From a virus (taxonomy: Duplodnaviria > Heunggongvirae > Uroviricota > Caudoviricetes): a stretch of 29,089 bases of DNA. A model generated the notes under the pieces. It was not told the DNA's origin and did no database searches. It saw nothing but the letters and a program-made list of their open reading frames with translations. Shown here piece after piece: positions 26,096 to 26,917 of the stretch. Numbering within the stretch: position 1 is the stretch's first letter; each line of letters begins with the position of its first letter. The position numbers were made by a program, and so were the translations under genes. The stretch lies in IMG/VR virus record IMGVR_UViG_2529292726_000018, positions 1 through 29,089 of that record; one strand, written 5' to 3'.

Positions 26096-26884
26096 TTACC
26101 CCCTGAAGCCTGGCGGGATCGCACTGTCCGGAAACGAGACAGTGTTAACCTGTCGGAGCAACGTCTCAGGCCGAACACTTTTCGGCGCGAACAAGCCCTG
26201 GTATTCATTGGCGATGCTGTGTCGAATCACCTGCTCAGGGGTAAAACCCTGCTGGCGGAATTTTTCCAGTTCCCGTATCGCCCCGTTAGCGCCCTGCTCC
26301 GTTCGAATCGGTTTTCGCAATGCCTGCCTGAACTGGACCCACTCATTCCAGAGTGTTTCTGGCAACCAGTCGGGCAGAGCAATGGCCTCCGGCTCGAATT
26401 GTTTAGACGCTCGTTTTTGCCGAGGGGGATTTAGGGGGAGATCAGTATTTATATCTTCCTCTTCCTCTTCCTCTGGTAACGCTTTTTGATCCGTTTGTGT
26501 AACGCTGGCAGCGTTACCTTTTCGCTTCAGTTCGCGTATTTTTGTAACTCTCTCGTTTGTAACCGCCCGTTTTTTCGAGCTTTTTCCGTTATGACGCTCA
26601 AAGTTTGGTAGTGAAAGCACTCCATCACTTTCGACCAGCCATCCAACCTGAATTAACGCATCAGCAAAACCAGCCATAAAAGTGATACGGTCTATTGCAC
26701 TTTTTGTAACGCCTCGAGCGTTACACTCTGCGTTACCGTCTATCATTTGTTGATCCGCCCATGCCCAGAAGCGAATGACTTTCCCTAATGCGGCATCTGG
26801 ATCAATATTCAGAATCTCAGCAAGCCTGAATATTTCCGGCTTATCCGGCGTAATAACTTCGAGCTTTATCCAGTTTGAAGCCAT
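26096..26884 (-). CDS. Replication initiation protein (lambda O position; YdaU/DnaT-like N-terminus?)
   Basis: 262 aa; ATG 26884 with SD AAGGTGA. Acidic stretch PEEEEEEDI. The 5' half of the gene carries repeated palindromes. Confidence 0.6.
   Translation of the reverse strand: MASNWIKLEVITPDKPEIFRLAEILNIDPDAALGKVIRFWAWADQQMIDGNAECNARGVTKSAIDRITFMAGFADALIQVGWLVESDGVLSLPNFERHNGKSSKKRAVTNERVTKIRELKRKGNAASVTQTDQKALPEEEEEEDINTDLPLNPPRQKRASKQFEPEAIALPDWLPETLWNEWVQFRQALRKPIRTEQGANGAIRELEKFRQQGFTPEQVIRHSIANEYQGLFAPKSVRPETLLRQVNTVSFPDSAIPPGFRG
26498..26518. repeat. Palindrome copy 1: GTAACGC-tggca-GCGTTAC
   Basis: Perfect 7 bp inverted arms with a 5 bp spacer at 26499-26517, inside the initiator coding region. 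Confidence 0.8.
26705..26725. repeat. Palindrome copy 2: TGTAACGC-ctcga-GCGTTACA
   Basis: Perfect 8 bp inverted arms with a 5 bp spacer, plus an extra GCGTTAC half-site at 26730-26736. Confidence 0.8.
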
Positions 26885-26896
26885 TTGTTTTCACCT

Positions 26897-26917
26897 TGTA
26901 ACGCTCGCAGCGTTACA
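26897..26917. repeat. Palindrome copy 3: TGTAACGC-tcgca-GCGTTACA
   Basis: Perfect 8 bp inverted arms with a 5 bp spacer, immediately upstream of the initiator SD and start codon. Confidence 0.8.

Follow-up and report, generated by a model that had tools for sequence, protein, structure and literature searches.

Inverted repeats in the initiator gene of a Rac/CP-933P-like prophage: putative initiator-binding sites and a candidate lambda-style origin

Among the known systems closest to the one considered here is phage lambda, whose replication origin lies in the middle of the initiator gene O and consists of iterons and an AT-rich tract; the O proteins act as dimers (PMC7466680). We checked the lambda sequence directly and found four iterons, each a 6-5-6 dyad TCCCTC-N5-GAGGGA, at +349..+433 of gene O, followed by ACAAAAGAAAAAAGAAAAGATTATT. 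The object of this work is a stretch of 29,089 nucleotides, positions 1 to 29,089 of the IMG/VR virus record IMGVR_UViG_2529292726_000018 (below, the window), in which the inverted repeat GTAACGC-N5-GCGTTAC occurs three times in and just before the gene of a phage replication initiator. The genes there make up the early-right operon of an Escherichia coli lambdoid prophage which is Rac/CP-933P-like.

Another inverted repeat of the same prophage module is already described. In CP-933P and Rac the YdaT operators are bound by a dimeric or tetrameric helix-turn-helix (HTH) protein, and the YdaT box found by experiment is TTGATT-N6-AATCAA (PMC9986795, PMC11879457). Rac is also reported to have an active origin, oriJ (PMC3945230). 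The K-12 Rac prophage has the gene order of the window (racR/cI-like, ydaS/cro-like, ydaT, initiator, ydaV), and the C-terminal half of its initiator and its ydaV are homologous to those of the window, with ~90% nucleotide identity. The initiators of iteron plasmids, such as F RepE, pPS10 RepA and R6K pi, are winged-helix proteins which bind the iterons of their origins and, as dimers, repress their own genes at inverted repeats.

It is established for the window that the sites exist, that they are under selection at the level of DNA and that they covary with the N-terminal domain (N-domain) of the initiator. To judge from the sequences, the dyads are very probably binding sites of the prophage's own initiator, and the site cluster together with the tract beside it probably forms a lambda-style origin inside the initiator gene. 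This gives a concrete candidate origin and a recognition sequence for an uncharacterised phage initiator family (phrog_2509, no Pfam family), which is spread, besides E. coli, in prophages of Pseudomonas, Xanthomonas, Klebsiella, Salmonella, Verrucomicrobiota and Planctomycetota.

Position of the dyads and comparison with known origins

The pattern GTAACGC-N5-GCGTTAC has exactly three matches in the window, at 26499-26517 (site B), 26706-26724 (site A) and 26898-26916 (site C), and with two mismatches tolerated in GTAACGCNNNNNGCGTTAC there are still three matches and no extra ones. By chance 0.03 matches are expected, and three were attained in 0 of 100 dinucleotide-preserving shuffles, which bears out the claim of an earlier note on this DNA that the window holds three such palindromes. 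The 7-mer GTAACGC alone is observed 12 times in the window against 2.3 expected, 8 of the 12 being inside 26476-26916. The fuller consensus is the 19-bp dyad GTAACGCT-N3-AGCGTTAC; two of the three window dyads are perfect 8-3-8 repeats of this form, and the copy at 26897-26917 is a perfect 9-3-9. The earlier note described all three, at 26498-26518, 26705-26725 and 26897-26917, as perfect; the copies are there, but the outermost pair at 26498-26518 is T/C, and this repeat is not perfect over that length.

The initiator (262 aa, phrog_2509) is encoded at 26096-26884 on the minus strand. Site B, with the sequence GTAACGCT-GGC-AGCGTTAC, is an exact match and a perfect 8-3-8 dyad in the inter-domain linker of this gene, at +368 from the ATG, and we propose it as the putative core initiator-binding site of the origin. 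It is accompanied by a terminal half-site at 26476-26482 (GCGTTAC on the gene strand), which adjoins a polypurine tract (GCGTTACC-AGAGGAAGAGG), and on its promoter-proximal side by two degenerate half-sites TTTGTAAC (GTTACAAA on the gene strand) at 26541-26548 and 26556-26563, which are weaker matches. Site A, also an exact match, is 207 bp from site B at +161 in the N-domain coding sequence, where the encoded loop is ...CNARGVT..., and an extra direct half-site stands 12 bp from it at 26730-26736 (+149). The earlier note had listed these half-sites and the TTTGTAAC direct repeats at the same places. The half-site at 26730-26736 arose via a four-codon insertion (GNA-E-CNA) particular to the enterobacterial lineage and is also found in Salmonella, Yersinia and Serratia relatives. 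Because it reads GTAATGC in 36 of the 57 close E. coli haplotypes, it is probably dispensable.

Site C, 399 bp from site B, is the perfect 9-3-9 dyad TGTAACGCT-CGC-AGCGTTACA at 26897-26917 in the non-coding 77-bp spacer between ydaT and the initiator gene. It ends ~1-2 nt upstream of the Shine-Dalgarno sequence AGGTG (26892-26896), which stands 7 nt before the ATG at 26884. The copy is thus near the gene start, as previously noted, but does not cover the ribosome-binding sequence on which it was thought to sit. The description of the palindromes as lying across the start of the gene fits site C only, sites B and A being within the coding sequence. We propose site C as a putative auxiliary, possibly autoregulatory site.

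On the gene strand the last half-site of the site B cluster adjoins the tract, so that 26440-26482 reads GCGTTACC-AGAGGAAGAGGAAGAGGAAGA-TATAAATACTGATC. The polypurine tract AGAGGAAGAGGAAGAGGAAGA (26454-26474, minus strand) encodes the EEEEEED linker and is followed by the AT-rich stretch TATAAATACTGATC down to 26440; together they occupy 26440-26475, where we propose that the DNA is unwound. G+C in the region is lowest (0.375) at 26440-26479, with strong strand asymmetry. Among 72 non-redundant homologous loci, 53 have a purine run of at least 14 nt within +330..+520, and the (AGAGAAG)n DNA is translated in different frames among the relatives, as REEKRRED or as EKRREEK. The junction GTTACC(T)AGAGAAGAG recurs in relatives of several phyla; the junction of site B and tract in relatives reads GTTACC(T)AGAGAAGAGAAGAGAAGAGAAGA.

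The likeness to lambda is in the layout. There, as in the candidate origin of the window, short dyad units and then a purine-rich tract, AT-rich in lambda and moderately so in the window, lie in the middle of the initiator gene, in the linker between the DNA-binding N-domain and the loader-binding C-terminal domain (C-domain), and the positions correspond (+349..+433 in lambda, +322..+409 in the window), the tract being at the same place. The loader gene follows directly downstream, and transcription comes from pR after cro and a cII analogue. The premise of the earlier note that lambdoid origins normally use direct iterons was wrong: the lambda iterons are themselves short palindromes and O is dimeric (PMC7466680), and for this reason dyad symmetry is normal in a lambdoid origin and no argument against one. 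Its suggestion of an origin of unusual type we judge to be a sensible reading.

The differences from lambda are also clear. The window initiator has no detectable relation to lambda O (hhalign probability 0.2%), the protein of the Pfam family Phage_rep_O, and it has no Pfam family. Its linker has one full dyad with flanking half-sites in place of four tandem iterons, and of two more full dyads, ~200 and ~400 bp upstream, the first is in the N-domain coding sequence and the second precedes the ribosome-binding site. In place of an A-rich run the tract has a (GAGGAA/AGAGAAG)n polypurine repeat, and in place of P the loader is DnaC/IstB-like. The locus would be lambda-like in its working, but it is not a member of the O family; the idea of an origin inside the initiator gene is itself classical.

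The K-12 YdaU protein differs from the window initiator by its DUF1376 N-domain (PF07120, 2.7e-26), which the window protein does not match (hhalign probability 0.07%), and the YdaU-type gene has no GTAACGC dyad but a repeat set of another sequence, GATGTTCAAAC/TGTTTGAACA, which directly precedes the same tract. In the K-12 Rac locus (L001, 2000-2311) these repeats are present in 4-5 copies, two of them in the linker, followed by an AT/purine-rich stretch at the equivalent of site B plus tract. They are candidate iterons of oriJ.

With the Rep proteins of iteron plasmids the window shares an initiator that is putatively winged-helix-like, the use of one half-site in both direct and inverted orientation and a dyad just before the initiator gene. 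By this analogy the arrangement at site C suggests autorepression. The differences are that no sequence relation exists, that the window sites are inside the coding sequence and that no promoter was identified at site C.

Covariation with the initiator N-domain and selection on DNA

With which component of the module do the dyads go? Related E. coli prophages are mosaics and offer natural swaps. K-12 Rac has homologous ydaT and ydaV together with a YdaU/DUF1376-type N-domain, and it contains zero copies of GTAACGC-N5-GCGTTAC. Another prophage, L004, has the same cro, cI and ydaT as the window, again with the YdaU/DUF1376-type N-domain and again with zero copies. L003 has a different cro with the same initiator, and all three dyads are present. 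In the TL-2011b-type prophages and phages (L002, L005, L006) ydaT is missing and the loader is lambda-P-like; all that they have in common with the window is the N-terminal ~115 residues of the initiator, which are ~70% identical, and the dyad is found at +149 and +358. By these swaps, and with the YdaT box elsewhere in the module, the dyads go where the initiator N-domain goes and follow no other component.

A search for relatives of the N-domain gave 80 near-identical viral contigs and 65 genomic loci, the latter from one-genome-per-species collections. The genomic loci belong to Pseudomonas, Alcanivorax-like Gammaproteobacteria, Achromobacter/Ralstonia/Pusillimonas, Verrucomicrobiota (Akkermansia, Terrimicrobiaceae), Planctomycetota (Stieleria, Pirellulaceae) and a Thermoanaerobaculia metagenome-assembled genome (MAG). 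The N-domain was also found in phages of Xanthomonas, Pseudomonas, Vibrio, Ralstonia and Salmonella (epsilon15). As only 2 of 72,556 records in a plasmid collection contain it, the initiator family is a phage family. At 43-58% protein identity, most of the ~65 N-domain loci have GTAACGC-N5-GCGTTAC (0-2 mismatches) at +149 and at +345..+390, and the dyads are kept at the same gene positions in Enterobacteria, Pseudomonas, Xanthomonas, Betaproteobacteria, Verrucomicrobiota, Planctomycetota and Acidobacteriota. The check for conservation in homologous initiator genes which the earlier note had suggested was run, and the repeats are kept far beyond what coding constraint explains.

Site A is present family-wide at +149/+161 and encodes the conserved loop DGNAxSVT (G-N-A-x-S-V-T). 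We compared its arm codons in 51 non-redundant genes with the codon use for the same amino acids as background. Gly is encoded by GGT in 50 of 51 genes (background 25%), Asn by AAC in 51 of 51 (72%), Ala by GCT in 45 of 49 (22%), Ser by AGC in 42 of 42 (28%) and Val by GTT in 49 of 51 (31%). In the Pro codon of the spacer all four third bases are in use. The equivalent of site B, a dyad or a half-site array at +335..+425, is found in most of the 72 non-redundant homologous loci. Conservation of the linker around it is poor, and the site is translated in either of two frames, which give the unrelated peptides xNAxSVT (31 sites) and VTxxALP (12 sites). The equivalent of site C is at -31..-43 in Salmonella, Serratia, Klebsiella and Citrobacter relatives, and in Yersinia with one mismatch. 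The initiators of these relatives are 51-81% identical to that of the window, the remaining upstream sequence is different, and the spacers differ per lineage. Among close loci site C is intact in 81 of 82, with four different spacers; the TL-2011b, Pseudomonas and Xanthomonas lineages lack it. Since the synonymous positions of site A are frozen, site B occurs in two frames, and site C is non-coding yet kept, a by-product of coding is excluded. In these patterns selection acts on the DNA and not on the protein.

The half-site itself differs among sub-families. In the epsilon15-type elements (Salmonella, Citrobacter, Kluyvera and others) the order GTCCGC, GTCCGC, GCGGAC, GCGGAC is found at +55..+101 and a second time at +334..+369. 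GTCACG is the half-site of both clusters in the loci L144 and L147. In a Rhodanobacteraceae locus three copies of GTCACG are at +138..+162 and six at +327..+384, both clusters of a Caballeronia locus contain GTCACGC-N5-GCGTGAC, and the half-site of a Vibrio phage is GTCAC. The sub-families swap the half-site in every cluster together and keep the layout. Where the half-site is GTCAC (AAC to CAC), the encoded loop residue is H in place of N; it is the DNA word that sets the amino acid, and not the reverse. Because epsilon15-type and window-type elements share enterobacterial hosts and have different half-sites, a host factor is unlikely as the reader.

It is unusual for a binding site to overlap the stretch that encodes the very domain which presumably reads it. 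A near-identical word, kept across phyla and driving amino-acid identity, makes this a clean natural case of dual coding constraint. The GTAACG, GTCACG and GTCCGC sub-families offer a convenient system for the study of initiator specificity and origin co-evolution.

Several observations concern these sub-families. In the basic helix segment of the initiator (window 26510-26565, residues 104-123) the GTAACG types have K.RA(L/V)TxxRV and the GTCCGC types KRRAQDADRK, residues 106-113 reading RA(L/V)TxxRV in one sub-family versus RAQDADRK in the other; the helix of residues 104-123 is a candidate specificity determinant. Phage epsilon15 (L010, 2055-2110 and 2334-2375) and L148-L155 have two GTCCGC/GCGGAC clusters, each with two direct and then two inverted half-sites at 11-bp pitch. 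The second cluster adjoins AGAGAAGAGAAGAGAAGAGAAGATATTAAA; the arrangement is a predicted origin, absent from the RefSeq record annotation. In a Planctomycetales MAG (L117), at ~-150..+450 of the gene, GTAACGC does not occur, and three hexamers (GCGCAA, CGCAAC and AGCGCA) show 8-9-fold enrichment; this is probably another specificity variant.

Proposed mechanism and alternative explanations

If the dyads are read by the initiator, then we can ask: How would the parts work together? An N-domain dimer would bind each 19-bp dyad GTAACGCT-N3-AGCGTTAC, and the half-sites at 11-12 bp pitch would add subunits on the same helix face. The complex on the linker cluster (26476-26563) would open the adjoining tract (26440-26475), with sites A and C as auxiliaries which may loop to site B or raise the local initiator concentration. 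The C-domain would recruit the DnaC-like loader YdaV with host DnaB. Site C would probably restrain expression of the initiator itself, in the way that the Rep dimers of iteron plasmids act at inverted-repeat operators. The binding, the unwinding, the recruitment of the loader and the autoregulation are all what we infer.

Several points weigh against such an origin. The three dyads are ~200 bp apart, unlike the tight tandem array of lambda, and because the inter-site distances vary by lineage (181-276 bp) looping between them is conjecture. With 37.5% G+C over 40 bp, the putative unwinding tract is no more than moderately AT-rich, and it could be conserved on account of a different function. 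In the close E. coli lineage (57 haplotypes) 8 of 42 arm positions are variable versus 104 of 408 in the rest (p = 0.45, a test without power), and many of these close copies are in cryptic prophages that may no longer replicate. A promoter scan of the gene strand found no sigma-70-like promoter near any dyad; it also missed the expected pR and is uninformative on autoregulation. The literature searched has no binding, unwinding or replication experiment for a phrog_2509-type initiator family. Searches on the dyad motif, the origin, YdaU/YdaV replication, epsilon15 iterons and the polypurine repeat gave no account of the family, at incomplete coverage, and literature matches to the motif strings were primers or unrelated eukaryotic work.

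A wider interpretation is possible, and we regard it as doubtful. The locus may represent an ancient initiator-origin cassette across bacterial phyla. The N-domain coding sequence would be written around its own binding site, with the word dictating the residues (GGT-AAC-GC to G-N-A; GTCAC to H), (AGAGAAG)n would be a near-universal opening or assembly site, and the N-domain-internal site, kept in all lineages, would serve an obligatory cis-acting step and be more than an auxiliary. If this were true, such a step might be, for example, loading of the nascent initiator onto the gene being expressed, or a looped two-cluster complex required for opening.

Could the initiator bind the dyads only as autoregulatory operators or roadblocks of the initiator-loader operon, with the true origin elsewhere? 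Site C, a perfect dyad right before the Shine-Dalgarno sequence and kept in enterobacterial relatives, would suit this role, the sites are dispersed and not tandem, and the dimeric Reps of iteron plasmids offer an analogy in self-repression at inverted repeats. However, sites A and B are kept in lineages without site C, and site B always adjoins the conserved polypurine/AT tract in the linker, which is the place of lambda's ori. The joints of module exchange are at the tract, and no promoter-like site near any dyad was detected in the scan that also missed pR. We therefore hold a purely regulatory role to be unlikely.

The dyads could also act as RNA hairpins in the pR transcript, in translational control, processing or mRNA stability, or as single-stranded DNA hairpins. 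Every dyad does fold to a stable stem-loop, site C is just 5' of the Shine-Dalgarno sequence, and a simple scan flags the site B hairpin with its T-rich tail as terminator-like on the antisense strand. The changes in the arms speak otherwise. Among 132 sites from non-redundant loci we counted 141 one-arm changes, of which 126 break a pair, against just nine complementary two-arm changes, four of these being the coordinated A-to-C specificity switch. The core TAACG (positions 2-6) is nearly invariant, which points to sequence recognition and not to pairing. A symmetric protein which recognises a specific sequence in double-stranded DNA leaves just such a pattern. Direct-repeat half-sites at 11-12 bp pitch would be left unexplained by hairpins, no Rfam match was obtained at E <= 1, and a sense-strand U-run is missing, which leaves this explanation very improbable.

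Dyad symmetry suits dimeric HTH proteins, and the module encodes three of them within 1.2 kb, so that a Cro-like protein, a CI-like protein, YdaT or a host DNA-binding protein might be considered as the reader. The exact YdaT box of the window, TTGATT-TTCATG-AATCAA, is found at 27374-27391 across the ydaT start codon, equal in sequence and position to the footprinted YdaT sites of CP-933P and Rac (PMC9986795, PMC11879457). The YdaT operators thus differ from the GTAACGC dyads in sequence, spacing and place. YdaT was rejected as the reader because the dyads do not fit its box and because prophages with ydaT and a YdaU-type initiator have none. Cro/CI operators were rejected on the evidence of L004, which has the same cro and cI without dyads, and of L003, which keeps all three with a different cro. 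The dyads are 500-1200 bp from the cI-cro spacer. Furthermore, the relatives in other phyla have other hosts and none of these regulators, and in hosts of the same kind the epsilon15-type elements have another half-site. A regulator other than the initiator is consequently extremely improbable, and in work on the Rac/CP-933P switch the dyads should not be taken for YdaT or Cro operators, a likely mis-assignment. Of the binders proposed in the earlier note, the initiator remains as a candidate, and YdaT and Cro-like proteins do not; its more general view that the dyads are protein-binding sites of dimeric type seems right.

Finally, the repeats have practically no chance of being a by-product of the repeated peptide GNA..SVT or a chance recurrence: although site A does encode the conserved loop, its synonymous positions are frozen, site B is read in two frames, site C is non-coding, the N-to-H residue change follows the DNA change from AAC to CAC, and the chance expectation is as low as given above.

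The prophage module, its joints and minor observations

The genes around the candidate origin are a cI-like repressor gene (27715-28134, plus strand) and, on the minus strand, a cro-like gene (27381-27635), ydaT (26962-27384), the initiator gene and ydaV (25343-26089). The last encodes a DnaC/IstB-like helicase loader (PF01695, E = 1.4e-19; ydaV in the RefSeq annotation) and starts 6 nt past the initiator stop. It is the functional partner which would be expected of an origin-binding initiator. Of 5,426 complete E. coli genomes, 449 contain an element with at least 80% of the 1.75-kb module. An origin here, if active, would be relevant to the replication of Rac-like cryptic prophages after derepression.

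The initiator has a putative winged-helix-like N-domain (~residues 1-100), a basic helix (100-123), a disordered acidic linker and a helical C-domain which is common to YdaU. We modelled the N-domain as residues 1-123 and the C-domain from ~165. The N-domain model has helices at 16-25, 29-46, 61-68 and 73-80, a beta-hairpin at 84-91 and the basic helix at 100-123, and winged-helix structures are among its neighbours. Pfam and NCBIfam have no family for the N-domain, the sole Pfam match at E <= 10 being a domain of unknown function (DUF) at 0.24, and a sequence search of the PDB gave only a chance match (E = 0.07).

It is useful to trace where the different initiators are joined. Homology of the K-12 YdaU-type gene resumes at GATC(T/C)CCCCCTAAATCC, and a 378-aa variant diverges directly after GATATAAATACTGATCT. 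The joints among the 262-aa, 378-aa and YdaU-type initiators are all at the AT-rich end of the tract (window 26440-26460; L161 2900-2960; L001 1940-1990). This arrangement implies that N-domain with sites, on one side, and tract with C-domain and loader, on the other, have probably been exchanged as separate modules, and joints at the tract are expected if these modules swap as units. Just downstream of the AT-rich stretch, at 26421-26441, the window has a C-run CCCCCTAAATCCCCC, which encodes PLNPP and is common to the K-12 YdaU-type gene. Similar motifs, CCCCC-N3-4-CCCCC, are present in Klebsiella, Ralstonia and Pseudohongiella relatives.

One more inverted repeat, the perfect 8-bp hairpin TACCGAAC-N6-GTTCGGTA at 26927-26948, lies between the ydaT stop and site C. 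Having no U-run, it does not qualify as a classical terminator. In the relative L161 the 5' arm has two A-to-G changes, after which the arms still pair only by G.U in the sense-strand RNA; this suggests an element that acts at the RNA level.

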